IMG/VR virus record: IMGVR_UViG_2563366976_000013
Length of the DNA: 43,386 nucleotides
Direction: 5' to 3' (one strand)
Source of the DNA: a virus
Taxonomy: Duplodnaviria; Heunggongvirae; Uroviricota; Caudoviricetes
This document shows positions 3,367-43,386 of this stretch, piece after piece. The translations under genes and the position numbers were made by a program. Position 1 is the first letter of the stretch, and each line of letters starts with the position of its first letter. The notes under the pieces are model-generated. The model saw only the letters and a list, made by a program, of their open reading frames with translations. It was not told the origin of the DNA and made no database searches.

Positions 3367-3394
3367 ACCCGCAATATTTTGCGGGCTTTTTTTT
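3367..3394 (+). terminator. Rho-independent terminator oriented for plus-strand (antisense to late operon)
   Basis: Stem CCCGCAA/TTGCGGG followed by T8 on plus strand; minus-strand version lacks U-run. Confidence 0.45.
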
Positions 3395-6300
3395 AACGTT
3401 CTTCCAGAGACTGAACCCGCTCTTTTATCTTATCCATTTCTCTGCGCTGCCATGCTGCCTCGATATAGAATAAGAGATCAGGTCTGACCCCCCATCTAGA
3501 TCCTGCTGGCGTTATTTCAACGCGCTCAATGATGTCTTCTATTACCATCACTGGATTATCATCCTCATCAACAATGATGCTCCCGTCATTATCAGTCAGC
3601 GGCATTTCCCTTTGGCCAGTAATGACGTCATCATATACTGCGGGATAATCGTCATAGCAAAGAAAGGCATAGCGGCATGTTGTGCTTTCTTCTTCCATGA
3701 GTCCGTGAGAAATAAGAACATCACGAAGTTGCTGCGCGATTACACCATGATGTATCCTCGCCCCTTCTTCCCCCTTTATAGCGACAGCGTTCAGCCATTT
3801 ATAAGCGATATACCTGACGTCACCCCAGGCATCCAGCAATGCTTCGTCAGGAGAGACCGGCTCTGTCTTTAATGTTCCGTCACTGGTAACCACAGGATTG
3901 GAGCCAAGATAAACTATCGAGAACCTGTTTCCCGGACCACCAAGAGCATTTACATTATCAAGATAAGGTTTAACATCTCCGTTCTCAAAAAGATGTTCGA
4001 GTGCGTTATATACCGCGCGACGTGGAGTACTGCTTCCGGAACCATGCAACGTTATCATTGCACCATCTGCTGAAGACGTTGTTTCACCGCCGCTAACGAT
4101 TAATCTCTGAGCGGTAACATCATCAGACGGTACTTTCTTCGCAATAATGGCGTAATTACCCTCAAGTTTGACTTCCGCGCGAACTTGTCCTGATGTACCT
4201 GCATGGACAGTCAGTGACTGGACGGCAACATCATCTGTGAAATCAACGGGTACAGGAACCGTCCTCACGCCTGACGTCGACATAAAAGTAGGAAGCGTTC
4301 TGTTAGGAGTGGCTCCGTAGACAAAATCCCTTGAAACAAATTCTTCCTGTTTAATTTTCACCCTGAAACAATACAAATCAGCCGGGTGACCATCGTGAAC
4401 ATAAGGATATTTTCTGTTGTTATCCCCTATGCTCCATGGGTTTAGAAAGTCTTCCCCACCGAAAATGTAGTACAGCCAGTTGTCTTTGATACAAACTGAA
4501 CCAACACCAACCGCAGAGTTAACTATTCCGCCCTGATAAATCTGATCAGTAACATTAACCCACTCTACATTATCCAGACTCCACTCATTGACGTTAACTC
4601 TGGTCATAAATGTTCTTGGATAATTTCCTGCATAACGGTTATCAGGTTCTCCTCCTTCCCACTCACCAAATGCGCGCTCACTGCCAAAAATAATCAGCTC
4701 ATCGCCAACTTTGGCAAAAGGAAGGTTTGAGTGATGAACATTATTTGGGAAGCGAAGAGAATTCCATGATGTACCTAAATCAGAGCTTCTGTGCAATGAA
4801 CTACCGGGTTGAGTACTTAATGTCCCCCTGGTCGTCAGATACAGAATGCCATCATAATATTTTACACATGGCTCAGATGCATTCGCCTCATATTCTACAG
4901 GTATGCGTCTGCGAACAAAGCTACCAGGAGAACCGAAAGCATCAGAGAAATAGAGTATCCCAAGCTCGCGTGGACCAATATCACCATTATGGTAGCCAAC
5001 AGCAAAACTGTTATCGCTAATCGTCGCAAAACTGTGAATCTCAGTAACAGGAGTGCTTCCGTCAACAAAAGAAGGAATAGTTCCAAGACTGGTTTTTCTC
5101 CATGGTGACGAGTGAAATGATGTGCCAAAACTCCAGTATCTACCCTCGTTATTCTGATCCACATCCTGGGTATTTTGCGTCGTAACTGTAAAGGTATTTT
5201 TATCAATAACAGTAGTCACCGTCATATTCCCGGTAACACCTGTAACACCAGAGTTTGAGAAGTTGACAAAATCACCAGCAAATAATCCGTGATCAGTAAT
5301 GCGAATATAAGCGACTTGCTGATTTGCTGCTTTCGTTATACCACCATAAACGCGAAGGCTGCGACTCATTGGGCGATCCCACAACTCTGCAACCTGCAGT
5401 TTATTTCCTCTCACGGTCCGCGTCTCAATTACAGCAAAAAGGCGATTTCTGACAACCCCCATACTCATGCAGTGATAGTTAACTGTGGGATAGTTTTTAT
5501 GTAAATCTGTAAGCCATTCCGGCGTTGTCCAGGTCTTCCCGTCATCTCCTGAGCGAACCCATGCAACATGGAGGTTATTTACACCATGGCGGTCTCCAGC
5601 CATAAAAGGCGCATAGATGACATTGTCATATACAAACGTTTTATCCTGCGTCCAGGCGTTGTACCACGGTGTATCTGTAATTTTAAATAACTCTCCCTGG
5701 ATAAAATCTTCAGAAGCATAAAAAAGAGGCTGGCCCGGTATTCTCTCAAATAAAAAACGAGCATTTTTAAATCGACTGACATCCGGAAGAGTTGATACTT
5801 TAAAAGTAAGCCCTAATCCGTCAATTTTATAACCTGGAGATGAGGCTTCAAGGCACGCGCTTATTGCAGTGGAATCGTCATTTATACCATCACCAACAGC
5901 TCCAAAATCTTTGGGGCTAATAGCATCACGCATTTTATCCTGGAACGTTCGGTACACAGCCCCAGAACCATACTGAATAAACCAACCAAAACCACCAACA
6001 ACTCCGGAGATTGCAGCATCGACATAATTACGCATTGAGCGATTATTTACAGCGTCCTGCTCAAATGATGGATCTGCAAGGTTAGAAATTTTGTTTTGCT
6101 TTGCATCGTAATATTTTGCAAGCAAAGATGGTTTCATCAATGCACGTCTGAACCACCCAAAACATTGCTGGATCAGCATCGTCAGGTAGTCAAAGGCATC
6201 TTCATGCACTTCGGGGAAAAATTTTCCCTGATTGCGAAGGTCTGTGTCCTGCACTACATCAAGCACACGATCTATCGTAATTCGCCATCCAGTAGCAAGC

Positions 6301-6512
6301 GGAGACGGAAGAACCACAGAACCGCCACTATAAGTGCCCGCCCCAGTTACCGTATAACCGGTATCCAGAACCAATTCTGTTACGTTTCCGTTCAGGTCAG
6401 ACACCTGAACAACCAGGTCTGATTTTCTGAAAATTCGAAAAGTATACGGAAACGATGTCGTAACGCCGTTACCGGTGTATTCGTTGTGGTCAACTTCGGT
6501 TGAGACCGTCAT
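3393..6512 (-). CDS. Tailspike: endo-N-acetylneuraminidase (endosialidase, K1 polysialic acid capsule depolymerase) with T7 gp17-like N-terminal adaptor and C-terminal intramolecular chaperone domain
   Basis: Long colinear matches to K1-phage endosialidase as recalled from memory (GQPLFYASEDFIQGELFKITDTPWYNAW, TVNYHCMSMGV, C-terminal ARIHHGVIAQQLRDV...CRYAFLCYDDYP); N-terminal region resembles T7 tail-fibre N-domain; RBS GGAG. Confidence 0.85.
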   Translation of the reverse strand: MTVSTEVDHNEYTGNGVTTSFPYTFRIFRKSDLVVQVSDLNGNVTELVLDTGYTVTGAGTYSGGSVVLPSPLATGWRITIDRVLDVVQDTDLRNQGKFFPEVHEDAFDYLTMLIQQCFGWFRRALMKPSLLAKYYDAKQNKISNLADPSFEQDAVNNRSMRNYVDAAISGVVGGFGWFIQYGSGAVYRTFQDKMRDAISPKDFGAVGDGINDDSTAISACLEASSPGYKIDGLGLTFKVSTLPDVSRFKNARFLFERIPGQPLFYASEDFIQGELFKITDTPWYNAWTQDKTFVYDNVIYAPFMAGDRHGVNNLHVAWVRSGDDGKTWTTPEWLTDLHKNYPTVNYHCMSMGVVRNRLFAVIETRTVRGNKLQVAELWDRPMSRSLRVYGGITKAANQQVAYIRITDHGLFAGDFVNFSNSGVTGVTGNMTVTTVIDKNTFTVTTQNTQDVDQNNEGRYWSFGTSFHSSPWRKTSLGTIPSFVDGSTPVTEIHSFATISDNSFAVGYHNGDIGPRELGILYFSDAFGSPGSFVRRRIPVEYEANASEPCVKYYDGILYLTTRGTLSTQPGSSLHRSSDLGTSWNSLRFPNNVHHSNLPFAKVGDELIIFGSERAFGEWEGGEPDNRYAGNYPRTFMTRVNVNEWSLDNVEWVNVTDQIYQGGIVNSAVGVGSVCIKDNWLYYIFGGEDFLNPWSIGDNNRKYPYVHDGHPADLYCFRVKIKQEEFVSRDFVYGATPNRTLPTFMSTSGVRTVPVPVDFTDDVAVQSLTVHAGTSGQVRAEVKLEGNYAIIAKKVPSDDVTAQRLIVSGGETTSSADGAMITLHGSGSSTPRRAVYNALEHLFENGDVKPYLDNVNALGGPGNRFSIVYLGSNPVVTSDGTLKTEPVSPDEALLDAWGDVRYIAYKWLNAVAIKGEEGARIHHGVIAQQLRDVLISHGLMEEESTTCRYAFLCYDDYPAVYDDVITGQREMPLTDNDGSIIVDEDDNPVMVIEDIIERVEITPAGSRWGVRPDLLFYIEAAWQRREMDKIKERVQSLEER

Positions 6513-7038: not shown

Positions 7039-7090
7039 AGTAATCAGGCACTGGCAAAATCCAGTGCCGGGATTGGTCTCCCGGATTACT
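7039..7090 (+). ncRNA. Conserved structured leader RNA element upstream of ant1 (three-way junction fold), followed by leader terminator
   Basis: AGTAATC...GATTACT outer stem enclosing hairpins GGCACTGG-caaaat-CCAGTGCC and CCGGGA-ttggtc-TCCCGG; near-identical copy in ant2 leader (11160-11213, minus strand). Confidence 0.45.
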
Positions 7091-7104
7091 ACAGAGGCAC
7101 ATAT

Positions 7105-7124
7105 GCCGCATAAGCGGTTTTTTT
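7105..7124 (+). terminator. Leader terminator/attenuator upstream of ant1
   Basis: Short GC stem GCCGC-ataa-GCGG followed by T7 run; analogous stem plus T7 in ant2 leader. Confidence 0.45.
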
Positions 7125-7278
7125 ATGTGTAAAGCGCACCTATTCTATGGTGGGCTGTGTGGGGGCACCGAAAGGTGCGCCGGGTTCCTTTGTAGCCGGT
7201 AAGACCAACTCTGCACAGTTCACCACCATCTGATTGGTCTCAGCGGTGGTGATTAACCTAACTACAAAGGTGATCGCC

Positions 7279-7971
7279 ATGAATACCAAACCTTCCATCT
7301 TTTCCTTTGAGTCATCCTGCCAGATCCGTATGTTCATGATTGACGGAGAACCTTGGTTTGTCACCAAAGATGTGTGCAATGCTTTGAATATTGATGTTAC
7401 ACAAGCGAGAAAACTTGATAAAAAAGGCTGGAACAAAAAGGGGCTGTATTCAATACAGACCCCTGGTGGAATACAAGAACTATCCATCGTTTCAGAATCA
7501 GGTCTCTACATCCTTATTCTGCGTTGCAAAGAGGCAATGACTGAGGGAACGAGAGCATTCAGATTTCTTGAATGGGTTACAGGCGAAGTACTTCCTCAGA
7601 TCCGCCGCACCGGAAGCTACATTAAAAACTCGCTCCCGCAGGAAGAACGCATAAAGATGGTTGCCGACCAGGTAGCCAACGCCACGGCGTCAGCAGTAAT
7701 GCAGGCGATGAAGATAGAGAACAAAACCTACAGCGCCCCACTGAAGCCCGGCTACCGCAGCCTGATTCATTCGCCGTCTGGTGTTCTCGGCCTGACGGAG
7801 AACTCACTGCTGATGAATCTGCTGAACCAGTTACAGGACGACGGGCACGACGTATCGGGCGCGGCGGCGGAGCTGACCACCATGTTCTGCTACATCGTCG
7901 GTGTGAGCAAATGCCTGCGTGATATCCAGACCCACGCGGAATACATCAACGACAAGGCAGGGTTCTTCTGA
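7279..7971 (+). CDS. Antirepressor paralog 1: Bro-N/KilA-N-type N-terminal domain plus shared Ant C-terminal domain
   Basis: IDGEPWFVTKDVCNAL motif (Bro-N-like); C-terminal 100 aa near-identical to the other two paralogs; start at ATG 7279 with RBS AAAGGTGA (ORF track begins at upstream TTG 7234). Confidence 0.75.
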   Translation: MNTKPSIFSFESSCQIRMFMIDGEPWFVTKDVCNALNIDVTQARKLDKKGWNKKGLYSIQTPGGIQELSIVSESGLYILILRCKEAMTEGTRAFRFLEWVTGEVLPQIRRTGSYIKNSLPQEERIKMVADQVANATASAVMQAMKIENKTYSAPLKPGYRSLIHSPSGVLGLTENSLLMNLLNQLQDDGHDVSGAAAELTTMFCYIVGVSKCLRDIQTHAEYINDKAGFF

Positions 7972-8099: not shown

Positions 8100-8426
8100 A
8101 TGACAAAACTTGGATTCGTGATGAGAGGTCCGGTAAGAAGCGGAACTCATGCAAAGCGTAGCAAGAGTCGTATTTTTACTGGTAAGGTTGTAGCACGTAA
8201 ATCAGCTATTGGCTCGTTCAATAGTGAAAATGCGGCATTGCGCCATATTTTTATCAGCACAAAGCCAAGAGCATCCGCTGATGTGCATACAATGTCTATT
8301 CCTATCACAAAGAATATAAAGCGGATAAAAAAGCTCTCATCTGCAGAATCAAAAGAGATATCTTTCCGCCAGCTTAACTCATTAGAAACGCATATGAAGG
8401 AAGAGGAATTCGATGTTTTTGAGTGA
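8100..8426 (+). CDS. Putative antitoxin/partner protein of YafO-like toxin 1 (basic, no recognised fold)
   Basis: 108 aa, RBS GGAG, overlaps toxin start by 14 nt (translational coupling); weak similarity to partner of cassette 2 (ARKSAIGSFNSE vs ARRSFNGSVE). Confidence 0.35.
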   Translation: MTKLGFVMRGPVRSGTHAKRSKSRIFTGKVVARKSAIGSFNSENAALRHIFISTKPRASADVHTMSIPITKNIKRIKKLSSAESKEISFRQLNSLETHMKEEEFDVFE

Positions 8427-8925
8427 GTATAGCGGGAAGGTTATACCTACTGGTGAGTTTAAAACTGATGACTTTCTGATTTCGCTAAAAGATGCTTTTA
8501 AACAACACTGGCGTCATGGTCATCATCCTGATCTGGGAAAAGATACTCTTTTTGAAAGACCAGAGGAAGTATTAGGCTTCCATCTCAGAAAGGTTCATGT
8601 CAATATTGGTGAATATGCATCATATTCATACTCATGTACTGAACAGTGTTGGGATGAGTGGTCATATGGATTGATTGATGAACAAGGAAATTACAGGCCA
8701 AAACCAACCAGTAACGCATATCTCATATATGCAGTCAATGAAATAAGAGATGCAGCCTTACTAGCTTATTGGGACCCGCCCGCACACACCAAAGCTAACG
8801 CAAAAGTTTGGATGGATTCCGTATTGAATTTCACAAAATTATTTCATGAACGAACGAATACAGCTCCACTTAGTAGAAATGTTTATCCGTGGGATTATTC
8901 GTACAAATCCAAAAAGCCTGCATAG
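8413..8925 (+). CDS. YafO-like toxin domain protein, copy 1 (type II toxin, ribosome-dependent mRNA interferase family, by motif)
   Basis: Motifs W.HGHHPDLGKD..FERP...L.FHLRKVHV and AYLIYAV...DAALLAYWDPPAH resemble YafO from memory; paralog of 9440..9985; RBS AAGAGGAA. Confidence 0.5.
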   Translation: MFLSEYSGKVIPTGEFKTDDFLISLKDAFKQHWRHGHHPDLGKDTLFERPEEVLGFHLRKVHVNIGEYASYSYSCTEQCWDEWSYGLIDEQGNYRPKPTSNAYLIYAVNEIRDAALLAYWDPPAHTKANAKVWMDSVLNFTKLFHERTNTAPLSRNVYPWDYSYKSKKPA

Positions 8926-9285: not shown

Positions 9286-9465
9286 ATGCGAAACGAAAAA
9301 TTGCAGATGCGTAGAGCGCAAGCTGCCGCAAGACGTTCTTTCAATGGAAGCGTAGAGTACGTAAAAGTTACTATGACAAAAGATCACGCAAGTCGCGTAT
9401 CCCGCGCTTTCTTTGATTCTCGTAACAATAAGGAAAATTATGAGTTCGTCTGCGTCGCAGAATGA
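9286..9465 (+). CDS. Putative antitoxin/partner of YafO-like toxin 2 (59 aa, below ORF-track cutoff)
   Basis: ATG 9286 with RBS GAGGT 8 nt upstream; overlaps toxin 2 start by 26 nt; manual translation MRNEKLQMRRAQAAARRSFNGSVEYVKV... Confidence 0.3.
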   Translation: MRNEKLQMRRAQAAARRSFNGSVEYVKVTMTKDHASRVSRAFFDSRNNKENYEFVCVAE

Positions 9466-9985
9466 TAAAAATCAAATTGTCAGATATAAGGGTCGAGTAT
9501 TGCATACGCAAAATTTCTCGGCCCTTTGTGCATCTGATCTTGAGCTGAAGAAAGTATCTGATGCCTTTACCCAGTATTGGAAAACGGGATACCATCCATC
9601 TCTTGGTAAAGATGCTGCATTTGCTCGTCCGACAGAAATGCTTAAACTAAATGTCAGGCATACTCATGTCGATAACCAAGACTATATTCCAGAAGATAGT
9701 GATAAAAAACACACTGGTAAAAAATCATCTTGGGATGCATGGAAAAATATAGCGTCTGTGCAAGTAAAATGCATACCAACAAGTGATTGCTTTTTAGTTT
9801 ATTCGGTAAATCACAATCGTGATGCGCTGGTTATGTTTTTTGTTGACGCAGATGCCCACAACATAACTGAGCAAGAAGAGTTTAAAGAGGCAGCAATCAC
9901 TATCAGTTATCAATTCTTTGAGAAAACAAAAACAGAACCAATGCCTTTAGAAGAAGATCTTTTTTCTGATAAATGGAAGGAATAG
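9440..9985 (+). CDS. YafO-like toxin domain protein, copy 2
   Basis: Motifs W.TGYHPSLGKD..FARP...L.LNVRHTHV and CFLVYSV...DALVMFFVDADAH; start at ATG 9440 with RBS AAGGA; followed by terminator. Confidence 0.5.
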   Translation: MSSSASQNDKNQIVRYKGRVLHTQNFSALCASDLELKKVSDAFTQYWKTGYHPSLGKDAAFARPTEMLKLNVRHTHVDNQDYIPEDSDKKHTGKKSSWDAWKNIASVQVKCIPTSDCFLVYSVNHNRDALVMFFVDADAHNITEQEEFKEAAITISYQFFEKTKTEPMPLEEDLFSDKWKE

Positions 9986-10312: not shown

Positions 10313-10969
10313 TCAGAAGAACCCTGCTTTGTCGTTGATGTATTCCGCGTGCGTCTGGATATCACGCAGGCATTTGCTCACACCGACGATGTAGCAGAAC
10401 ATGGTGGTCAGCTCCGCCGCCGCGCCCGATACATCGTGCCCGTCTTCCTGCAACTGGTTCAGCAAATTCATCAGCAGTGAGTTCTCCGTCAGGCCGAGAA
10501 CACCAGACGGCGAATGAATCAGGCTACGGTAGCCGGGCTTCAGTGGGGCGCTGTATTCTTTTTTGTCTTCCAGCTTGATCGCCTCCATAATGGCGGGCAT
10601 GAAGCCTGACAAGACCTTCTCCACTTTTGTTTCTTGTTGTCTTAAACGTTTCTCGCATTCAATGAAGTAGCGTCGCACCTGGCGACCTTTTTCGTTACGC
10701 TCGACCATCGCCAGCTCTTTGGCTGTATCAAGGGTGAGGTGGTACTCTTTGCGGTTGTGGCCGCCTCTACCAGATGTTTGCTTTCCCAAATTGGAAAGCA
10801 AAATATAGTCTTGATTTTCAATGAATTCGTATTCTGATATGCGATTTGTAATCCATGCTGCAAACACCTTTTTAACACCTAAAAAAGCGTGCAGATCGCG
10901 GGCATTACAAAGTAGGGCTGTTTCGTTAGATATAGTGCCGTTGAATACGGGGATGAGTTGAGCGTTCAT
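10313..10969 (-). CDS. Antirepressor paralog 2: AntA-type N-terminal domain plus shared Ant C-terminal domain
   Basis: N-terminus [23 protein letters not shown], middle [20 protein letters not shown]; C-terminus near-identical to ant1 and ant3; RBS GGAGACG. Confidence 0.75.
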
Positions 10970-11125
10970 GATGGCGTCTCCACTTAGCGAATTACATCAC
11001 CACCGCTGAGACCAATCAGATGGTGGTGAACTGAACGGAGTTGGTCTTACCGGCCTAAGTGGTACCGGCGTCCTTTCGGACCCCCATTCAGCCCACCATA
11101 ATTCTGGCATGACTGTGCTATACGC

Positions 11126-11285
11126 ATAAAAAAACCACGTCTGGCGTGGTATGCGCCACTTAGTAATCCGGGAGACCAATCCCGGCACTGGATTTTGCCA
11201 GTGCCCGATTACTATGGCACAAGAGGAGTGCGATGTAAATTTACCGAAAAGGTAATGATAAACGCTAAGAAATATTAAAATCAAC
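11126..11285 (-). promoter_or_regulatory. ant2 promoter, operator (11241-11255), structured leader (11160-11213) and leader terminator (11126-11150)
   Basis: Mirror image of ant1 control region with near-identical structured element; palindrome TTACCgaaaaGGTAA. Confidence 0.5.
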
Positions 11286-30446: not shown

Positions 30447-30785
30447 TCACACTATTAATTTCGTTTCATGCCAGCCTTTGGTCACCCAGCATTGCGAGTC
30501 ACCATTACACGGGCATGAATTAACTGGAACTCTCTCGCCGCACTTACCGCAACGTTTTCTGCTGATCGATTTTATACGCCCGCGCACCCGGGCATCATCC
30601 TGGCGGATCAGCAGCGCGATGTACTCGGCCATTTCATAGGGATCTCGACCAGGGCGCCGGGCGGCGCAGTTCCGCTCCAGCATTTCAATTTCCTGAGCAT
30701 CAAGCACAATCTCCAGCTTACGCACACCAGATGCAGCTTGTCTGGCTCTCTGAGCGGCTTTGCGCTCTGCTGCTGATTTAGCCAT
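30447..30785 (-). CDS. Zinc-finger protein, candidate late-gene regulator
   Basis: Cys cluster CGKCGERVPVNSCPC in C-terminus; basic N-terminus; last early gene before terminase. Confidence 0.35.
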   Translation of the reverse strand: MAKSAAERKAAQRARQAASGVRKLEIVLDAQEIEMLERNCAARRPGRDPYEMAEYIALLIRQDDARVRGRIKSISRKRCGKCGERVPVNSCPCNGDSQCWVTKGWHETKLIV

Positions 30786-31059
30786 CAATATTTACCTTTA
30801 TCGCGTATACCTTTACCGGTTTATCGCCGAAGTGGGGATGTGTGATTGTCTTGATTTCATATCCGTCATACGGGACGTCAATTCTACGACTGGAGTCGTC
30901 GCGCTTCGGATATCCCTTTGTGATAATCAGTCGGTCATAATCCCTGAACATAATTCGCTTATTCCAGTAGTCATTACACAGGCGATACTCTTCCGTTTTC
31001 TCTCCGCGAATGATGGCATCGAAGTATTCACCTTTAACGGCTAGTTGCAGGTTAGCCAC
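30778..31059 (-). CDS. ASCH/PUA-like domain protein
   Basis: GTG start with perfect AGGAGG RBS; YFDAI..G.KT.E.R motif typical of ASCH-type small barrels. Confidence 0.5.
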   Translation of the reverse strand: MANLQLAVKGEYFDAIIRGEKTEEYRLCNDYWNKRIMFRDYDRLIITKGYPKRDDSSRRIDVPYDGYEIKTITHPHFGDKPVKVYAIKVNIDG

Positions 31060-31927
31060 GGTTAACCTCCTGCGGCGGTTCTGGTAGAGGCATCCAGTGT
31101 GACGGTTTCCACGACGCACCAGGAATTATCCACCCATCATTAGCGTCAGGATGCCCCGGGATGTAAGTAGCCCATTTCATTCGCCAGTCACCTTTCCTGT
31201 CAAACTCCACGGCAACAAGAACGGCTGTTTTGGTATTCGGCATTCGCTCACTACAGCTTATCCAACCATCCGGAGTTACCGGAACTTGCGGAATGGCTGT
31301 CTGCTCTCGAACGTCATTAGGCGCTATAGGTTCTGCTGCCAACTGACTGGCATATTTGTTAATGGTAACGATAAGCTCTTGCTCAGCCTCATCCAGACAA
31401 TCACCGATACCTCGCCTGTCACCGTCAAAATCATCGAAATCGGCACGAATCTTGGCAACCTTCTGGATTGCGGACAACACCTCACTAGGAATTACCGGAT
31501 AGTTGGTTGACGTTTCCGCGATTTCCCGAAAATTATTGGTTGACGAATTCTTGTTTTCCCGAAAGTTTCCGGACTGAAGCATGGCGGCGCGGCAGGCGTT
31601 CCAGCCTCTCACCTCTGCAATAGCGGCAACAGCATCAACCGCGTACATGCTAAGAGGATTAGGCATTGGTTTTTCTTCCGGTACTACTGGAACGGGGGGA
31701 GCGGCGTAGACCTCAATAATTCCATTATCAATAGGCCATTCTCCATCCTTGAGGTAGTCACTTGTGCCGTCAACTTGCTGTTCTGCAATGTGGAATGCAC
31801 CTATTGGTTTTGCTTCCAGTGATGCCAGTGCAATTCGTGCCAGTTCCATTTGTTCGCCACGAGTAAGTCCGTTATCAAGCGGATTTTTAATGAATAATTC
31901 GATACGTTCTTTGGTTATAGCGCTCAT
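31052..31927 (-). CDS. Hypothetical protein with DUF551-like C-terminal domain
   Basis: C-terminal DGWISCSERMP...W..PSHWMPLPEPP resembles the phage DUF551 domain; start at MSAITKE overlapping upstream stop. Confidence 0.45.
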   Translation of the reverse strand: MSAITKERIELFIKNPLDNGLTRGEQMELARIALASLEAKPIGAFHIAEQQVDGTSDYLKDGEWPIDNGIIEVYAAPPVPVVPEEKPMPNPLSMYAVDAVAAIAEVRGWNACRAAMLQSGNFRENKNSSTNNFREIAETSTNYPVIPSEVLSAIQKVAKIRADFDDFDGDRRGIGDCLDEAEQELIVTINKYASQLAAEPIAPNDVREQTAIPQVPVTPDGWISCSERMPNTKTAVLVAVEFDRKGDWRMKWATYIPGHPDANDGWIIPGASWKPSHWMPLPEPPQEVNRG

Positions 31928-33227: not shown

Positions 33228-33836
33228 TCATGCCGATCTATTTTTCATCAGTGATTCATAAAACTTTTGCCACTTATGCCGACCGAAATTAGCCTTCGAG
33301 TTACAGCTCGAACAAAGGCAAATAAGGTTCTCCTGACGACAGTCTTGCTTGTCGTAATTGATGTGATGAGTTGTTAGCCTTTTGTCTGTTCCATCACAAC
33401 CTGGGTTCTGACAAGTAAAACCATCTCGCTCAATAACCCTCTTGCTCGTTTCTCGGAAATCCCACGGATACGGCAATCTCGATAATCCACCAGACCAGTT
33501 TGGATTTCCTTCCCCCTTCATCAGAGAAGAACGCATTATGTTGGAACACTGTTTCGAGCAGCATTTATGACGCTTCTCATGACTCAAGAAAACGGAGAAC
33601 GAAGATCCGCATACGCAGCATATTTTTAATACTCGCTTTAGTTCCCGATTTACCGTCTTGCCTCGCTGTGAAATTCCTACACACTGAAGTGAGCAGAACC
33701 TTGAAGATGAGTTGGCTCGCTTAACCTGATATTGCCTGCCACATACGGAACAAACCTTTTCGATTTTCCCACCCTTCCAATTCGGGTTTTTATCACCGGA
33801 TACAATCAATCCCGCAGCATTGGGCTTCTCGCTCAT
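33228..33836 (-). CDS. HNH endonuclease with N-terminal zinc-ribbon repeats
   Basis: HNH core TTHHINYDKQDCRQENLICLCSSCN; two NPNWKGG/NPNWSGG repeats with Cys pairs. Confidence 0.7.
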   Translation of the reverse strand: MSEKPNAAGLIVSGDKNPNWKGGKIEKVCSVCGRQYQVKRANSSSRFCSLQCVGISQRGKTVNRELKRVLKICCVCGSSFSVFLSHEKRHKCCSKQCSNIMRSSLMKGEGNPNWSGGLSRLPYPWDFRETSKRVIERDGFTCQNPGCDGTDKRLTTHHINYDKQDCRQENLICLCSSCNSKANFGRHKWQKFYESLMKNRSA

Positions 33837-36645: not shown

Positions 36646-37230
36646 ATGAAAAGTATCCAGGACGTCCGCAGGCAAAATCTCAACGACTTGATCGACCGTG
36701 AATTCAATGGTGTTCAGACGCGGATGGCAGAAAAACTTGGAACTCAGGCAAATCTGGTAAACCGCTGGGCTCTTGGCAAGAAGGTTATCGGCGACCAGGT
36801 TGCACGAAAAATTGAAGCTGCCGCCAATAAACCCCGTAACTGGCTTGATATTGATCGTTCGCTTTCTCAGGAGGGTTTTCAGCCTGTCGGCCCGAGCGAT
36901 ATAGGTCAGCTGGCGGCTCACAACCTGGAACGCTGGATGAGCGAAAGCCGCGACCTTTCAACACAGGGAAAACTTCACCGCGCATCCGGCGTCGCCCAGG
37001 TGACAATCAGCCGCCTGTTAAACAATGAGGTCAGCGTTTCCATTTCCACCCTGGAGAATGTTGCATCCGCATTCGGGCGTCACGGATATGAACTACTGAT
37101 TCACCCGCACGACCCTGCGACTATCAACTATGACCGCTCGCGCTACGCATTGTTACCCGAAACCGAGAAAGCAAAGATCGAAAGTTACATTGAATTTGTC
37201 ATCAACCAGAACGAAAAAAGCAAAAAATAA
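36646..37230 (+). CDS. CI-like repressor with two HTH regions and no recognisable LexA/S24-type self-cleavage domain
   Basis: 194 aa; HTH-like segments near residues 20-45 and 115-140; C-terminus lacks Ala-Gly/Ser..Lys peptidase signature; divergent from Cro-like gene. Confidence 0.55.
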   Translation: MKSIQDVRRQNLNDLIDREFNGVQTRMAEKLGTQANLVNRWALGKKVIGDQVARKIEAAANKPRNWLDIDRSLSQEGFQPVGPSDIGQLAAHNLERWMSESRDLSTQGKLHRASGVAQVTISRLLNNEVSVSISTLENVASAFGRHGYELLIHPHDPATINYDRSRYALLPETEKAKIESYIEFVINQNEKSKK

Positions 37231-37250: not shown

Positions 37251-37275
37251 AAGCCGCCTCATGGCGGCTTTTTTA
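37251..37275 (+). terminator. Rho-independent terminator after repressor gene
   Basis: AAGCCGCC-tcat-GGCGGCTT followed by T6. Confidence 0.7.
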
Positions 37276-37287
37276 TTGCCAGATAGA

Positions 37288-37364
37288 TTACCTTACGGGT
37301 AATTTTTTTAACTCATATCTATTGACAACAAACCAAATAAGCATAATTATTACCTCAACGGTAA
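37288..37364 (+). promoter_or_regulatory. Early-left promoter flanked by two operator palindromes
   Basis: TTACCttacgGGTAA (37288-37302), -35 TTGACA (37322-37327), 17-bp spacer, -10 AATTAT (37345-37350), TTACCtcaacGGTAA (37350-37364). Confidence 0.55.
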
Positions 37365-37538: not shown

Positions 37539-37838
37539 ATGAACGTTAATCAGCAGAAAAATCTTCAAAAAATCATGCTGGCATTCGACAAGGACTACCG
37601 CCTGTCAGAACAGCTATATGACCGACAAGTTGAACTGATCGAGAGCATCCGGCTTCATCAACTAGCCTCAACTTTCGACGCTGTAACAGGTAAAGGCGTT
37701 CGCCAGGAAGTGCTGGAGGCAGCTAAAGACAGCCCTGAGTTCGAAGAACTTATGGATGCCTACCGGCGCGAGGCAATGGCAATTATCGCCCGCTGGGATC
37801 TGGCGGATCGGATTGATGGGCAGAGGGAAGCGGCATGA
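37539..37838 (+). CDS. Hypothetical early protein
   Basis: RBS GGGAGGG; 99 aa. Confidence 0.4.
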   Translation: MNVNQQKNLQKIMLAFDKDYRLSEQLYDRQVELIESIRLHQLASTFDAVTGKGVRQEVLEAAKDSPEFEELMDAYRREAMAIIARWDLADRIDGQREAA

Positions 37839-38656
37839 AACCGGGAATTTATTTCGACATCAGCAATGAGGACTACCACGCCGGTGACGGCGTGAGTAAG
37901 TCGCAACTGGACATGGTTGCCAAGAATCCGGCGCTTCTTAAATGGGTTCAGGCAGCACCAGAAGACGAAGAGAAAAAGTCTGCACTGGATATGGGAACCG
38001 CATTGCACTGTCTGCTTCTGGAGCCTGGAGAGTTCGACAAACGCTTCATTGTTTCACCGAAATTCGATCGTCGGACGAAACAAGGTAAAGCTGACGAAGA
38101 GGCATTTCTTCGTGATGTGGCGGATATGGGGATTACGGTACTTGATGCCGAGCAGTGGCGGAAACTGGAGCTGATGCGTGATAGCGCAATGGCTCACCCG
38201 GCGGCACGCTGGATGCTGGAAGCACCTGGTTACTGCGAAGCATCAATGTACTGGAATGATGAAGAGACTGGTGAGTTGTGCCGCATTCGTCCAGACAAAT
38301 GGCTGAACGAGCACAACGTGATCGTCGACGTGAAAAAGGTTGCAGATATGGATCGTTTTGCACGCCACATCGAGGAATTCCGCTACCACGTGCAGGACGC
38401 AATGTACCGCGAAGGAGCGATGAGGGTTACTGGTCAGTCGCATGGTTTTTTCTTTCTTGCCGTGAGCGAAAGCATTGATTGTGGTCGGTATCCGGTACGC
38501 ATGTTCGCGCTGGATGCGCCGGATGTCGATGCCGGGCACGCTCTGTTCCGCCGGGATCTGAATACCTATCACGAATGCCGCATCAATGATGAATGGGGCG
38601 GCGTGGAAATCATTAAACGCCCTGAGTGGGCACGCAAACAGGATATGTACGTATGA
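37835..38656 (+). CDS. Exonuclease, PD-(D/E)XK type (RecE-like partner of RecT)
   Basis: Motifs RIRPD and VIVDVKK; immediately upstream of and overlapping recT. Confidence 0.6.
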   Translation: MKPGIYFDISNEDYHAGDGVSKSQLDMVAKNPALLKWVQAAPEDEEKKSALDMGTALHCLLLEPGEFDKRFIVSPKFDRRTKQGKADEEAFLRDVADMGITVLDAEQWRKLELMRDSAMAHPAARWMLEAPGYCEASMYWNDEETGELCRIRPDKWLNEHNVIVDVKKVADMDRFARHIEEFRYHVQDAMYREGAMRVTGQSHGFFFLAVSESIDCGRYPVRMFALDAPDVDAGHALFRRDLNTYHECRINDEWGGVEIIKRPEWARKQDMYV

Positions 38657-39534
38657 GCAATGATATCGCAATCACATCACAACCAGGCGCAACTGTAGGT
38701 ACTGCTGCGGCAATCTTCAGCCCGGAGGGCATGAATCAACTGGTGCGTTTCGCGGAGTTGATGTCACAAAGCAAAGCGACTGTACCGAAACATCTTGAAG
38801 GCAAACCTGCCGATTGTCTGGCGGTGACCATGCAGGCGGCACAGTGGGGAATGAACCCTTTCGCCGTGGCGCAGAAAACGCATGTGGTAAACGGAACGTT
38901 AGGCTACGAAGCACAGTTGGTAAACGCGGTCGTATCCTCTTCCAGCCTGCTGGCGACACGCCTGAATTATCGCTGGAGCGGTGACTGGTCGAATGTTAAC
39001 GGCAAAACAGATAAATCACCGAATCTGACGGTAACTGTGTCAGCAGTTCTTAAAGGAGAAGCAGAACCCCGTGAGCTTACCATCAGTATGGCGCAAGCCG
39101 GAGTGCGTAACTCTCCATTGTGGGAACAGGATCCGCGCCAGCAGCTTGCCTATCTTTGCACGAAACGATGGGCTCGCCTGCACGCTCCTGATGTACTTCT
39201 CGGTGTTTACACCCCTGACGAATTACAGGAAACGGCACCGCGCGTTGAGCGAGATATTACTCCGCAAACGACTACTGCTGCGGGAATGAACAGTCTGATC
39301 AACGCTAAACCAGTGAAAAAGCATGATGAGCAAACGCGTAAAGCGGATAGCCGTGATCCAGAAGAAATGCTGATGGCCTTTACCAGCGCAGCGATGAATT
39401 ACAGCACTGTCTCCGAACTGGATAAGGCTTACAAATACATTGCACAAAAACTTTCAGATGATGACGAACTGCTGGCAAAAGCCACCGACGTTTACAGCGT
39501 TCGTCGGGAAGAATTAAACGAAACATCTATGTAA
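38653..39534 (+). CDS. recT: RecT-family single-strand annealing recombinase
   Basis: Motifs CLAVTMQAAQWGMNPFA...GYEAQLVNAV characteristic of RecT; start at MSNDIAIT overlapping exonuclease stop. Confidence 0.75.
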   Translation: MSNDIAITSQPGATVGTAAAIFSPEGMNQLVRFAELMSQSKATVPKHLEGKPADCLAVTMQAAQWGMNPFAVAQKTHVVNGTLGYEAQLVNAVVSSSSLLATRLNYRWSGDWSNVNGKTDKSPNLTVTVSAVLKGEAEPRELTISMAQAGVRNSPLWEQDPRQQLAYLCTKRWARLHAPDVLLGVYTPDELQETAPRVERDITPQTTTAAGMNSLINAKPVKKHDEQTRKADSRDPEEMLMAFTSAAMNYSTVSELDKAYKYIAQKLSDDDELLAKATDVYSVRREELNETSM

Positions 39535-39583
39535 CCACCACCGCGGCGCCACACGCGCCGCACTGCAACCAAGAGAGGTATTT

Positions 39584-39832
39584 ATGAAAGGTGCATTAGA
39601 TAAGAAGAAACTCCTGGCGGTGGTGCCACTGTCATGGAGCACTATCGACCGTATGGAGCGCGCAGGTGAATTTCCTAAACGCTGGTATATCACTGACAAA
39701 CGCTGCGCATGGAACCGTGACGAAGTTGAGCGTTGGCTTGATGAACGTCAGGCAGCAAGCCCGGCAGAGTTCCAGGGTAAAAAGCCTCCTGTTCAGCAAC
39801 GTGTATATCGTCCTGTGAGAAACGCTGCATGA
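39584..39832 (+). CDS. AlpA-family HTH regulator / excisionase-like
   Basis: LSWSTIDRMERAGEFPKRWYITDKRCAWNRDEVERWL matches AlpA-type fold pattern; RBS GAGAGG. Confidence 0.6.
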   Translation: MKGALDKKKLLAVVPLSWSTIDRMERAGEFPKRWYITDKRCAWNRDEVERWLDERQAASPAEFQGKKPPVQQRVYRPVRNAA

Positions 39833-39941
39833 GTGTGCTGCTAAGGCACTGGAGCAAATGGTCAGGATGGTACTTATTCCTGGCCTCTGTTTCAGCATGG
39901 CTTTATCTGCTGGCATTAATTTTCAGAGAGGGTTGGATTAA

Positions 39942-40241
39942 GTGAGAAAGTTAAGCCGACTTGAAAAATATCACATGAACAAGGTTTCAATGCGCCGTCC
40001 TTCAAAGGTTATCGCCGTTACTCCTGCGGCGATAGAGATCGAAAAACGCGCGATTGAAAGAGAGAAAAAAGGGCAGTTCCGCATTGCCGCTCACCTTTGG
40101 CTTCAGTGTATGGATGTTGCTTATGGTGATGTTGAACGTGCAAGGATCGCGGTTCGCAGGGACCAATGTATCACAAAAGGTAACGGCCTTCGCCGTGGCG
40201 ACTATAGCGGCATAGGATGTTGTGGGGTGGTTTATGACTAA
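39942..40241 (+). CDS. Hypothetical protein (start uncertain)
   Basis: ORF with GTG start; no recognised motif. Confidence 0.3.
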   Translation: MRKLSRLEKYHMNKVSMRRPSKVIAVTPAAIEIEKRAIEREKKGQFRIAAHLWLQCMDVAYGDVERARIAVRRDQCITKGNGLRRGDYSGIGCCGVVYD

Positions 40242-40884
40242 GAAATACACACTAATCTATGCAGATCCACCCTGGGTATACCGGGACAAAGCCGCAGATG
40301 GTAATCGCGGTGCCGGTTTTAAATATCCGGTTATGAGTGTGCTGGATATCTGCCGCCTTCCTGTGTGGGATTTGGCCGATGAAAACTGTCTGTTGGCCAT
40401 GTGGTGGGTGCCAACACAACCACTCGAAGCACTAAAAGTTGTTGAAGCCTGGGGATTCCGTCTGATGACCATGAAGGGCTTCACGTGGATAAAATGTGGT
40501 AGTCGACAACCAGATAAACTGGTTATGGGTATGGGACACATGACTCGCGCCAATAGTGAAGATTGCCTGTTTGCGGTAAATGGAAAACTACCTACGCGCA
40601 TTAATGCAGGGATCGTTCAGTCATTTACCGCACCGCGGCTTGAGCATTCAAGAAAGCCAGATATCGTTCGTGAAAAACTTGTGCAATTGTTAGGCGATGT
40701 TTCTCGCATTGAACTGTTCGCCCGCCAGTCGTCTCATGGTTTCGATATTTGGGGTAATCAGTGCGAAGACCCGGCAGTGCAACTACACCCTGGATACGCG
40801 TTGGATATTGCCAGATTAACAAATGCATTCAGCAATGCTCCGCTGTCACCAACAGACAACCAGGGGCGGGAGCGTGCAGCATGA
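40234..40884 (+). CDS. MT-A70-family N6-adenine DNA methyltransferase (orphan)
   Basis: Catalytic DPPW motif in IYADPPWVY; no adjacent restriction gene. Confidence 0.75.
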   Translation: MTKKYTLIYADPPWVYRDKAADGNRGAGFKYPVMSVLDICRLPVWDLADENCLLAMWWVPTQPLEALKVVEAWGFRLMTMKGFTWIKCGSRQPDKLVMGMGHMTRANSEDCLFAVNGKLPTRINAGIVQSFTAPRLEHSRKPDIVREKLVQLLGDVSRIELFARQSSHGFDIWGNQCEDPAVQLHPGYALDIARLTNAFSNAPLSPTDNQGRERAA

Positions 40885-41129
40885 AGCAGATTATGGTTGC
40901 ACACAACGGCGTCAGGTTTGAAGTCGTCATGGTTTTGACTAAGTACCGCAATGATGAGGTATTGCAGAGAAAAGAAACTGTAACTTACCGTTATAAACAC
41001 CGAAGTTCAGCTGTTAGAACATTACGGAAGATTACGGAAGAACTAAAAAATGATCCTCATCGTGTTATTGAGGTAAAAGGCAACCCATATAAAATCACAA
41101 CTTCAGTGGAGCTAAGACATATGCAATAA
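40881..41129 (+). CDS. Hypothetical small protein
   Basis: ATGA overlap with methyltransferase stop, RBS GGGAG. Confidence 0.4.
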   Translation: MKQIMVAHNGVRFEVVMVLTKYRNDEVLQRKETVTYRYKHRSSAVRTLRKITEELKNDPHRVIEVKGNPYKITTSVELRHMQ

Positions 41130-41453
41130 AATCACGCCTGACGAATCGCGATTATCTCGCTATTGGTATTGCAGAGATTGCTGGACTCAGTGGCGCATGA
41201 TTTGACAATGCCGCCAGAGCTATCGCATACTGACCGCACTAGAACTTCAAAGCGGTCACCCGCACCCGATAGCTTTGCGGCTTTTTTATGCCTGCAATTT
41301 GGCATAGTCACATCCGTACAAAGGTCGGGTGGAGAGGCGTAATACAATACCCAAAAGGGGAATATGCCCGGAGCGTCTTTGAAGGCTCTAGTTGACACCC
41401 GATCACCAGCTACTAACTGGTGATTGCTAACTAAAACTTCAAAGGAGGTCATC

Positions 41454-42104
41454 ATGACCAGTCAACTCATCCCCGTATTCAACGGCACTATATCCAACGA
41501 AACCGCTCTTCTCGTTAATGCCCGTGATTTACACTCTTTCCTCGATGTAGGTAAGCGATTTGCTTCGTGGATTGTCGAACGAATTGCTGAATATGGTTTC
41601 GTTGAAAATCAAGACTTTATGATTATTTCCCAAGTTCGGGAAAAAATAGGCAGAGGCCGTCCTGCAAAAGACTACCACCTCACCCTCGATACAGCCAAAG
41701 AGCTGGCGATGGTCGAGCGTAACGAAAAAGGTCGTCAGGTACGATGCTACTTCATTGAATGCGAGAAACGTTTAAGACAACAAGAAACAAAAGTGGAGAA
41801 GGTCTTGTCAGGCTTCATGCCCGCCATTATGGAGGCGATCAAGCTGGAAGACAAAAAAGAATACAGTGCCCCGCTGAAGCCCGGCTACCGCAGCCTGATT
41901 CATTCTCCGTCTGGTGTTCTCGGCCTGACGGAGAACTCACTGCTGATGAATCTGCTGAACAAGTTACAGGAAGACGGGCACGACGTATCGGGCGCGGCGG
42001 CGGAACTGACCACCATGTTCTGCTACATCGTCGGTGTGAGTAAATGCCTGCGTGATATCCAGACGCACGCGGAGTACATCAACGACAAGGCAGGGTTCTT
42101 CTGA
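41454..42104 (+). CDS. Antirepressor paralog 3: AntA-type N-terminal domain plus shared Ant C-terminal domain
   Basis: High identity to paralog 2 across most of length; RBS AAGGAGG; hairpin CACCAGctactaaCTGGTG just upstream. Confidence 0.7.
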   Translation: MTSQLIPVFNGTISNETALLVNARDLHSFLDVGKRFASWIVERIAEYGFVENQDFMIISQVREKIGRGRPAKDYHLTLDTAKELAMVERNEKGRQVRCYFIECEKRLRQQETKVEKVLSGFMPAIMEAIKLEDKKEYSAPLKPGYRSLIHSPSGVLGLTENSLLMNLLNKLQEDGHDVSGAAAELTTMFCYIVGVSKCLRDIQTHAEYINDKAGFF

Positions 42105-42135: not shown

Positions 42136-43386
42136 TTATTCCCCCGCCATCCACTTCTCAAACTTCGACGGGGAGAACGGAATCAGATCCGTATGCTCCC
42201 CGTTAATCCAGGAATCAATCATATCGGCCCACTGCTGCAACATGTAGGCGCGCTGTCTGGCGTATTCCGCTTTGTTATATACGGCGCGCACACCTTTCTG
42301 CTCATGTGCCAGAGCCTTTTCAATCCAGTCTGAAGGATAACCAGCCTCATGCAACAACGTACTGGCTGTACGGCGCATATCGTGTACGGTGAAGCCCTGA
42401 ATATGCTCACCATCTTCATTTATTATTTTCACCGTTCTGTCGATCAGAGAGTTCAGCGCGGCATTAGATAATGGCTTCCGGAAATTGTAACGACCAGGAA
42501 CCAGATATTCACTTCCACCAGCGCACATCTGCAACCCAACCAATATATCCTGTGCCTGTTTAGGCAGGTAAATAACGTGCGCCCGGCTTCCCTTCATGCG
42601 GTCTGAAGGAATTGTCCATGTCCATTTTTTAAAATCTATTTCATCCCACGTTGCATTGGTGAATTCGCCTTTACGAACCATAGTGATAAGCACCAGCTTT
42701 AAAGCCATTTTCATAGTGCCCATAGCACCAATGGCATCCAGCGTGCGGAAGAACAGGCCAATTTCTTCTGGTGTCAGTGTTCGCTCTCGTGGTTTAAATA
42801 TGGCGATAGACGAAGGTTTAATGTCAGCCGCAGGATTAAACAAACCATGACCACGGTCATTGGCGTGACGGTATACGCTGCTGATGATCTCCCTGGCCTG
42901 TACTGCTGTTGCCCGACCACCGCGTTCGACAATCCGGTCACACAAATCACGAACCATCGATGTGGTAATTTCAGCCATCATTTTGTTGCCAAGAACCGGA
43001 AGTATGTCACGGTCGATCACCGCCTGCTTCATTGCGCGGGTACTGTCAGCCAGGATAACGTGTTTCATATAACTGTCGGTATGTACCGCAAACGTCTCGG
43101 CACCACGAATCTTTTTGATACCGTCACGTTTAGCCGCAGCCGGTGACTGGCCTGCTTTAAGCAGCTTCTTTGCAGCAATCAGTTCTTCCCGCGCTTCTGC
43201 CAGGCTGATACCGTCACGCCCATACTGCCCGATTACCAGTGTTTCGCGGCGACCGTTGATACGGTAGTCATAGCGAAACGAGACCGTGCCTGACGTAAGC
43301 ACAGCTACATACAGCCCGTCACGATCGGAGACCTTGTACAGTTTGTCCTGCGGCTTGAGGTTTTTTAATTTTGTATCGGTAAGCAC
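42136..43386 (-). CDS. int: Tyrosine integrase (phage integrase family), N-terminus truncated by window end
   Basis: N-terminal LTDTKLKNLKP...DGLYVAV arm-binding type region and C-terminal catalytic region with HDMRRT and terminal-Y context; ORF runs off window. Confidence 0.85.
   Translation of the reverse strand: MLTDTKLKNLKPQDKLYKVSDRDGLYVAVLTSGTVSFRYDYRINGRRETLVIGQYGRDGISLAEAREELIAAKKLLKAGQSPAAAKRDGIKKIRGAETFAVHTDSYMKHVILADSTRAMKQAVIDRDILPVLGNKMMAEITTSMVRDLCDRIVERGGRATAVQAREIISSVYRHANDRGHGLFNPAADIKPSSIAIFKPRERTLTPEEIGLFFRTLDAIGAMGTMKMALKLVLITMVRKGEFTNATWDEIDFKKWTWTIPSDRMKGSRAHVIYLPKQAQDILVGLQMCAGGSEYLVPGRYNFRKPLSNAALNSLIDRTVKIINEDGEHIQGFTVHDMRRTASTLLHEAGYPSDWIEKALAHEQKGVRAVYNKAEYARQRAYMLQQWADMIDSWINGEHTDLIPFSPSKFEKWMAGE

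Follow-up and report, generated by a model that had tools for sequence, protein, structure and literature searches.

The Stx2a phage PA8 encodes an MT-A70 methyltransferase, M.EcoPA8orf6770P, that contains a DPPW motif (Gong, Chakraborty & Koudelka 2023, NAR, PMC10810198). On its own, the enzyme is weak and non-specific, and its activity on DNA in vitro is “nearly indistinguishable from background”; joined 1:1 to PNB-2, which the gene upstream of it encodes, it prefers 16S rRNA in 30S subunits, with an RNA preference of more than 13-fold (PMC10810198). Both spontaneous induction and virulence are increased by the PA8 enzyme, and this effect depends on DPPW (PMC10810198). Its relatives are listed in REBASE as GATC enzymes, and one similar enzyme, M.EcoGV from E. 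coli O104:H4, methylated GATC in vivo on overproduction (PMC10810198); M.EcoGV is also listed as a GATC “Dam homolog” (PMC6602927). M.EcoGIX, considered as a prophage MT-A70 enzyme, was dropped: the literature places it on a plasmid and describes a specificity for single-stranded DNA. The common prophage gene described below bears on whether this phage MT-A70 clade acts on DNA (at GATC) or on 16S rRNA.

MT-A70 enzymes generally require partners, e.g., PNB-2 (PMC10810198) and MTA9/p1/p2 (PMC9174199). In MTA1c (AMT1) and METTL3-METTL14, which share with the phage protein the MT-A70 fold, the DPPW motif and a C-terminal ELFAR...WGN segment, the catalytic subunit depends on accessory nucleic-acid-binding subunits. 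In the AlpA family, proven excisionases (TorI, which is the same protein as Kapi1 Xis) are found alongside transcriptional master regulators of satellites (PMC11773190). The temperate phage phiV10, a recognised species, carries in its genes p36 to p33 an AlpA family regulatory protein, a membrane protein, a PerC-type transcriptional activator and a DNA methyltransferase, respectively.

A phiV10-like Prophage in guaA

The DNA analysed here (henceforth, the window) is a stretch of 43,386 nucleotides, IMG/VR virus record IMGVR_UViG_2563366976_000013. On sequence comparison, it is a phiV10-like prophage (genus Uetakevirus, epsilon15 group) residing within the 3′ end of guaA. Bases 1–1161 are host DNA with yfgH and yfgI, and the 17-bp attL core, AATCATTCCCACTCAAT, occupies positions 1162–1178 in the last guaA codons, as determined by BLASTN against phiV10 and comparison of attL, attR and attP. 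At the other end, a P4-type tyrosine integrase gene (42136–43386, − strand; domains Arm-DNA-bind_3, Phage_int_M and Phage_integrase) is 98.9% identical in DNA to phiV10 int, and guaA is located just past it. The sequence ATACCGTCACC is repeated in both att arms, and the int-proximal arm also contains TGAATAGRAATGA and ATGAGTT repeats; none of these repeats could be assigned to the AlpA-like protein (see below) or to the integrase.

The section of interest, 39584–40884, is bounded precisely by the start codon of an alpA-like gene and the stop codon of an MT-A70 methyltransferase gene. It is best explained as the distal part of an early operon, with recombination and accessory genes, in a temperate podovirus of the phiV10/epsilon15 type. 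Many E. coli chromosomes and phiV10-like phages or prophages match the region at 98% DNA identity, and at least part of a 1.9-kb query (39400–41300) was matched in 874 out of 5426 complete E. coli genomes. The alpA-like/methyltransferase module is ordinary, being already annotated in phiV10, in epsilon15 and in approximately 870 E. coli genomes; RefSeq E. coli genomes carry the annotation as well. Both the AlpA-like protein and the methyltransferase are conserved across several enterobacterial genera, and, therefore, neither is a chance ORF.

With respect to recET and the P4-type integrase gene, the genes are arranged and oriented as in phiV10, with equivalents in epsilon15 and SPN1S. DNA identity with phiV10 is approximately 96.5% across 39109–40885, and the PerC-like protein and the methyltransferase are 95–97% identical at the protein level. 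The two genomes differ 3′ of the methyltransferase gene, where the window features an 82-aa ORF, an sRNA-Xcc1-like element and an AntA antirepressor gene, while phiV10 has a DUF1382 gene; a DUF1382 gene takes the place of the 82-aa ORF at the same position in PA8 as well. Furthermore, recE and recT are separate ORFs in the window but constitute one fused gene in the phiV10 annotation.

Gene Chain at the End of the Proposed Early Operon

Five + strand genes form a chain in which each stop codon overlaps the start of the next gene: the alpA-like gene, an ORF for a 38-aa peptide (ORF38), a perC-like gene, the MT-A70 methyltransferase gene and the 82-aa ORF. The overlaps can be read directly: ATGA for alpA/ORF38, GTGA for ORF38/perC-like, ATGACTAA for perC-like/methyltransferase, and again ATGA at the methyltransferase stop. 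ORF38 (39829–39945, +) specifies a membrane peptide that matches phrog_17484 over its full length (4.7e-27) and is annotated as phiV10p35. The 82-aa ORF (40881–41129, +) matches phrog_9805 (1.7e-57) and is PGAP-annotated in strain E57; it yields no Pfam match and is not present in phiV10. A first-pass annotation of this section, made from the letters alone, named the alpA-like and methyltransferase genes, both of which stand, but missed the two genes between them, encoding the membrane peptide and the PerC-family protein.

Between recT and the alpA-like gene, a GC-rich hairpin (39543–39561, +) with a 7 bp stem and a 5 nt loop, lacking a U-tract, shows 100% pairing in eight distinct sequences, including two compensatory pairs. 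Further upstream, a two-HTH repressor gene (36646–37230) is followed by a terminator-like hairpin at its end (37251–37270) and then by a promoter-like site, TTGACA-17-AATTAT (37322–37350, +), a candidate start for an early operon extending to 41129. This site is a consensus match only, and in our scan, shuffled sequence yielded matches of this kind at least as often. Scanning the interval from the 37322 site to 41129 returned no terminator-like site on the + strand. The placement of the locus in an early-left operon, as first annotated, agrees with these features, with the promoter remaining a consensus match.

We propose that recE, recT and the five-gene chain would form a single + strand unit after the repressor terminator, one that would be repressed in the lysogen and turned on by induction or infection. 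The scan detected no promoter-like site adjoining the methyltransferase gene, and the enzyme may, therefore, be silent in the lysogen. The integrase gene is convergent with this derepression-dependent operon and must have its own promoter. Taken as a whole, the locus is best explained by an early-operon Dam-like DNA methyltransferase combined with an AlpA-like directionality factor and/or early regulator, a reading to which we assign a probability of about 0.5.

The AlpA-like Protein

The alpA-like gene (39584–39832, +) encodes a winged-helix protein of 82 aa. Its match to Pfam Phage_AlpA (PF05930) is a marginal pass (23.2 bits; cut-off 21), but the assignment is shared by phrog_66, “excisionase and transcriptional regulator” (1e-15), and by the solved structure PDB 8c3t, “AlpA family phage regulatory protein” (3.5e-12), an entry whose origin a search did not reveal; phrog_2790 is also matched, and both phrogs are categorised under “integration and excision”. 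The original call of an AlpA/excisionase-type HTH gene on the strand opposite to the integrase gene is borne out by these three sources and by the respective orientations (+ versus −). Nearly all of the 144 homologues collected are 82 aa long, and a basic C-terminal tail, GKKPPVxQRxYRPV, is invariant across 24 aligned sequences.

With TorI/Kapi1 Xis and the AlpA regulators of islands, the protein has in common the PF05930 domain, the small winged helix and the association with a P4-type integrase: in seven out of seven epsilon15-like genomic loci in which the gene was detected, it occurs alongside such an integrase gene. Pairwise comparison with TorI/Kapi1 Xis, a proven excisionase, gives no significant similarity (E = 0.09). 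The protein differs from these relatives also by the conserved basic, Pro-rich tail of approximately 20 aa, and its gene by a location within the early operon, 2.3 kb from the convergent integrase gene.

The AlpA-like protein is likely an excision or regulatory factor. We infer an excisionase role rather than assert it, since the AlpA family is mixed in function and significant similarity to TorI is lacking. The most serious alternative is that the protein solely controls transcription, regulating or antiterminating genes of the phage or the host, with directionality supplied otherwise or needless. All protein-database sources that name the protein call it a regulator and none labels it an excisionase; it also matches 8c3t more closely than TorI. 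Moreover, the occurrence of a PerC-family gene near the alpA-like gene mirrors Gram-negative satellites, i.e., phage-inducible chromosomal islands, in which AlpA is the master activator (PMC11773190). Nevertheless, phiV10 is temperate, and the alpA-like gene, by way of phrog_66, is the sole excisionase-family match in the phiV10 annotation and among the scanned ORFs of the window; both phrog matches, as said, belong to “integration and excision”. Proteins that double as excisionase and regulator are, furthermore, common in the AlpA-type fold. A directionality role is also favoured by the shared occurrence with this integrase type in the seven loci, by the invariant basic tail and by the position of the gene in the derepression-dependent operon. 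We consider a role in regulation alone possible but less probable, and a directionality factor, possibly with regulation in addition, somewhat likelier by inference. Under the preferred reading, the AlpA-like protein would be the recombination directionality factor of the phage and/or an early regulator: made only post-derepression, it would shift the separately transcribed, convergent integrase to excision.

The MT-A70 Methyltransferase and Its Substrate

The methyltransferase gene (40234–40884, +) encodes 216 aa from its ATG, or 220 aa from an alternative GTG start at 40222. The protein matches Pfam MT-A70 (PF05063) with 76.6 bits (cut-off 23.9) over profile positions 1–172 out of 172, and phrog_359 at 1e-119; it is 76% identical to the SPN1S methyltransferase. 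The DPPW motif lies near the N-terminus (residues 11–14; 40264–40275), and the C-terminal segment (ELFAR...GxxxWGN) is present, IELFARQSSHGFDIWGNQC aligning with the same segment in MTA1. With the Pfam domain covered end to end and DPPW in place, the gene is intact, and its earlier identification as an N6-adenine methyltransferase gene holds. The protein is a bare catalytic domain (172 of the 216 residues), and a target-recognition domain is absent.

The nearest solved structures by sequence are those of ciliate MTA1 DNA 6mA methyltransferases (approximately 1e-12), followed by METTL3 (3e-5), these structure entries being identified via PMC9174199 and PMC9852454. The relation is distant, and the minimal phage protein of 216 aa contrasts with the eukaryotic multi-subunit assemblies. 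Amongst 40 longer methyltransferase homologues, five are fused to ParB_N and three have LAGLIDADG/intein inserts. A DndB-like gene is directly upstream of the methyltransferase gene in SPN1S and in Citrobacter werkmanii, and in lambdoid prophages, homologues are found among replication, NinB and RusA genes. For the clade, DNA is favoured as substrate because of the proximity to MTA1, the ParB_N fusions, the LAGLIDADG/intein inserts, the DndB-like neighbours and the replication/NinB/RusA context. Against DNA, the sole biochemistry available for a close (82% identical) homologue showed almost no DNA activity (PMC10810198), and the GATC result for M.EcoGV was obtained by overproduction. The C-terminal tail of the window methyltransferase differs from that of the PA8 enzyme after residue 187. 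As for M.EcoGV, overproduction can yield off-target methylation.

On balance, chances are roughly one in two that the enzyme is a solitary Dam-like N6-adenine DNA methyltransferase, specific for GATC or a relaxed version of it, and expressed alongside the other early genes. The enzyme would act on phage DNA during replication without relying on host Dam, and the outcome could be protection from restriction that cuts unmethylated GATC or a tuning of phage DNA transactions. Its intrinsic activity is probably low, and it may depend on a partner. The prophage contains 147 GATC sites (observed/expected 0.73), a count that is uninformative on the methyltransferase. Host Dam already methylates GATC in Dam+ E. 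coli. A comparison of the methylomes of lysogen and cured strain for a new motif, proposed with the first-pass annotation, would be uninformative because Dam covers GATC and because repression probably keeps the gene off in the lysogen. The protection of phage DNA suggested there is plausible yet unproven: relatives of the enzyme are listed as GATC methyltransferases (PMC10810198, PMC6602927), but the PA8 enzyme is almost without DNA activity. As to the suggested modulation of host gene expression, the experimental precedent is a different one, namely, 16S rRNA and spontaneous induction in PA8 (PMC10810198).

That precedent underlies the second alternative, in which the methyltransferase is mainly an RNA enzyme whose target, as for the PA8 holoenzyme, is host 16S rRNA, with translation and the rate of spontaneous induction tuned as a result. 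Judged by homology, the catalytic subunit is a member of the clade studied in PA8: over residues 1–187, it shares 82% identity with M.EcoPA8orf6770P, and the DPPW motifs coincide in position. In both phages, the solitary gene is near the integrase end of the prophage, and its translation is coupled to that of a small gene upstream. Published data on the PA8 enzyme, namely, its DPPW-dependent phenotype and its preference for rRNA (PMC10810198), speak for such a function, as does the MT-A70 fold held in common with METTL3/14. The preference for rRNA, however, required PNB-2. The gene upstream is a PerC-family gene here, PNB-2 does not align with the PerC-like protein, the PerC profile does not match PNB-2, and a TBLASTN search of the entire window found no PNB-2 homologue. 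The tails of the two enzymes, 20–30 residues at the C-terminus, are unrelated beyond residue 187, and the C-terminal region of approximately 27 residues that the PA8 authors proposed for the complex with PNB-2 is not matched in the window methyltransferase; two attributes of the rRNA holoenzyme, the PNB-2 gene and this C-terminal region, are thus absent. In addition, the published PA8 assay followed the consumption of SAM and did not reveal which base was modified (PMC10810198), and, within the clade, fused domains and neighbouring genes favour DNA. We regard a primary role on rRNA as unlikely for the window enzyme. The phage backbones are different, Sepvirinae in PA8 and Uetakevirus here. A correspondence of PNB-1 and PNB-2 to the AlpA-like and PerC-like proteins, respectively, was rejected, since PNB-1 belongs to the ORF6N proteins and PNB-2 lacks any similarity. 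The phiV10 type, without the published rRNA-directing partner, offers a natural comparison case.

The PerC-Family Protein Upstream

The perC-like gene (39942–40241, +) encodes 99 aa from a GTG; annotators have used later ATGs, giving 88 or 83 aa. The N-terminus is conserved in other genera. The protein matches PF06069 (27.7 bits; cut-off 22.6) and, over its full length, phrog_868 (5.5e-61), with a weak match to NCBIfam ANR_neg_reg. Because the methyltransferase is essentially a catalytic domain only, a partner is plausible, and the PerC-like protein could be imagined to activate or direct it as a functional analogue of PNB-2, the perC-like and MT-A70 genes forming a mobile two-gene cassette.

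Consistent with such a partnership, the methyltransferase ATG overlaps the perC-like stop by 8 nt, the enzyme has no room for a target-recognition domain, and MT-A70 enzymes are usually partner-dependent (PMC10810198, PMC9174199). Both genes occur in the epsilon15-type loci and phages whose neighbourhoods were read, the PerC-like ORF being found in seven epsilon15-type genomic loci. To define the upstream neighbour more broadly, we surveyed 28 methyltransferase loci from different species. A PerC-like ORF immediately precedes the methyltransferase gene in four loci of the lambdoid replication region (two in Buttiauxella and one each in Dryocola and Lonsdalea), and in three of the four it is a fusion of a winged helix with PerC; this recurrence of the pairing in an unrelated replication/nin setting is suggestive. 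The other genes directly upstream encode NinB or NinB-like proteins (five loci), DUF1317 (three), PD-(D/E)XK proteins (two), and a DndB-like protein, an HNH-like endonuclease and a replication protein (one each), besides several function-unassigned ORFs.

Against the partnership, in most epsilon15-type phages, DUF1317 and a variable insert (DndB-like, PD-(D/E)XK or HNH) separate the two genes; this is usual in the epsilon15-type loci and also the case in epsilon15 and SPN1S. No PerC/MT-A70 fusion was found among 135 PerC homologues or the 40 longer MT-A70 homologues, and when we compared the C-terminal tail type of the methyltransferase with the identity of the upstream gene, no pattern emerged. 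PerC proteins show no similarity to PNB-2, and elsewhere, in EPEC plasmids and satellites, they act without a known methyltransferase (PMC11773190). We consider a PerC-dependent methyltransferase quite improbable; were it true, some PerC-family “transcriptional activators” would work via adenine methylation of DNA or RNA.

Orphan Status and Distribution

That the methyltransferase has no cognate restriction gene, as first annotated, is corroborated: Pfam scans, of limited sensitivity, detected no restriction-endonuclease domain in the neighbours or in the larger ORFs scanned from those parts of the window that phiV10 lacks, and the phiV10 annotation lists no restriction enzyme. A role as part of a prophage restriction-modification or other defence system can be practically dismissed, since no support for it was found beyond a sub-threshold HNH_3 match (33228–33836, − strand) 6.4 kb from the methyltransferase gene, the flanking genes are the PerC-like gene and the small 82-aa ORF with no adjoining nuclease gene, and the solitary layout recurs in phiV10, epsilon15 and Stx phages.

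Our searches of a viral collection for related loci returned only near-identical copies of the methyltransferase gene, and almost no matches with divergent PerC-like queries. The methyltransferase family as a whole comprises 11,909 clusters at 50% identity, and homologues occur in 516 phage records.

A Candidate RNA Element and a Variable Slot in the Methyltransferase Operon

A GC-rich hairpin, GCGGCGC-CACAC-GCGCCGC, occupies the plus strand of the window at 39543-39561, between the recT stop codon and the alpA ribosome-binding site. Its pairing is complete in eight distinct sequences from several enterobacterial genera, amongst which two compensatory pairs occur, and the observed score was reached by 16 of 500 shuffles. 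The hairpin is not a classical terminator because it lacks a U-tract; a role in RNA processing or RNA stability is possible, by which it would demarcate the alpA-to-methyltransferase portion of the operon. Directly upstream, the recE-like ORF (37835-38656, plus strand) and recT (38626-39534, plus strand) overlap as two separate ORFs, as they are also annotated in E. coli at RefSeq, whereas the phiV10 annotation specifies one RecE-RecT protein of 586 amino acids, which is either a genuine fusion or the product of a frameshift in the phiV10 record.

In epsilon15-type prophages of other genera (compared loci L085-L094 and L004, the latter being phage SPN1S), the cassette located between perC/DUF1317 and the methyltransferase gene differs from one locus to another, and this position looks like a hot spot for insertions. 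Directly 5′ of the MT-A70 gene, we found a DndB-like gene, a PD-(D/E)XK gene, an HNH-like endonuclease gene (assigned by eye) or a gene for a 203-amino-acid protein without assigned function. In Enterobacter hormaechei (L094), an IstB/DnaC-like ORF, likewise assigned by eye, lies upstream of the MT-A70 gene, and epsilon15-type backbone genes were not detected at that locus.

An ORF on the minus strand (30778-31119) weakly matches the ASCH domain (E = 0.0047), a domain that the phiV10 annotation assigns to the product of the corresponding gene, p54. Binding of modified nucleic acids has been proposed for ASCH domains (PMC4738411), and this may be relevant alongside an m6A methyltransferase.

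Antirepressor Modules and Variable Regions of the Prophage

The prophage harbours three antirepressor modules. Two of them, a Bro-N-type gene (7234-7971, plus strand) and an AntA-type gene (10313-10969, minus strand), lie downstream of isrK and C4 antisense RNA pairs (7048-7230, plus strand, and 11019-11204, minus strand, respectively; both above the Rfam gathering scores), an arrangement resembling P1/P7-type immunity regions. The third, an AntA-type gene (41424-42104), is directly preceded by an Rfam match to sRNA-Xcc1 (41323-41412, plus strand; 62.9 bits, gathering score 53), which falls in a segment missing from phiV10 and situated between the methyltransferase and the integrase; a promoter-like site is located at 41202-41231. 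Also absent from phiV10 is the segment holding two plus-strand ORFs with weak YafO-toxin-like Pfam matches, one below the cut-off (8413-8925) and one just above it (9413-9985).

The tailspike region (3393-6512, minus strand) is unrelated to that of phiV10, and BLASTN of the window against phiV10 yielded no counterpart of the latter's O-acetyltransferase gene, oac. Matching E. coli genomes annotate an endosialidase beta-propeller protein here, which suggests a K1-capsule-specific variant.

The leftmost 1.16 kb (within 1-1178) is host DNA, including yfgH (1-516), yfgI (532-1071) and the guaA terminator, and the att core AATCATTCCCACTCAAT (1162-1178) corresponds to the guaA 3′ end. The phage attP carries a separate copy of a guaA-terminator-like hairpin. 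Both att arms include the motif ATACCGTCACC, likely an integrase arm site.
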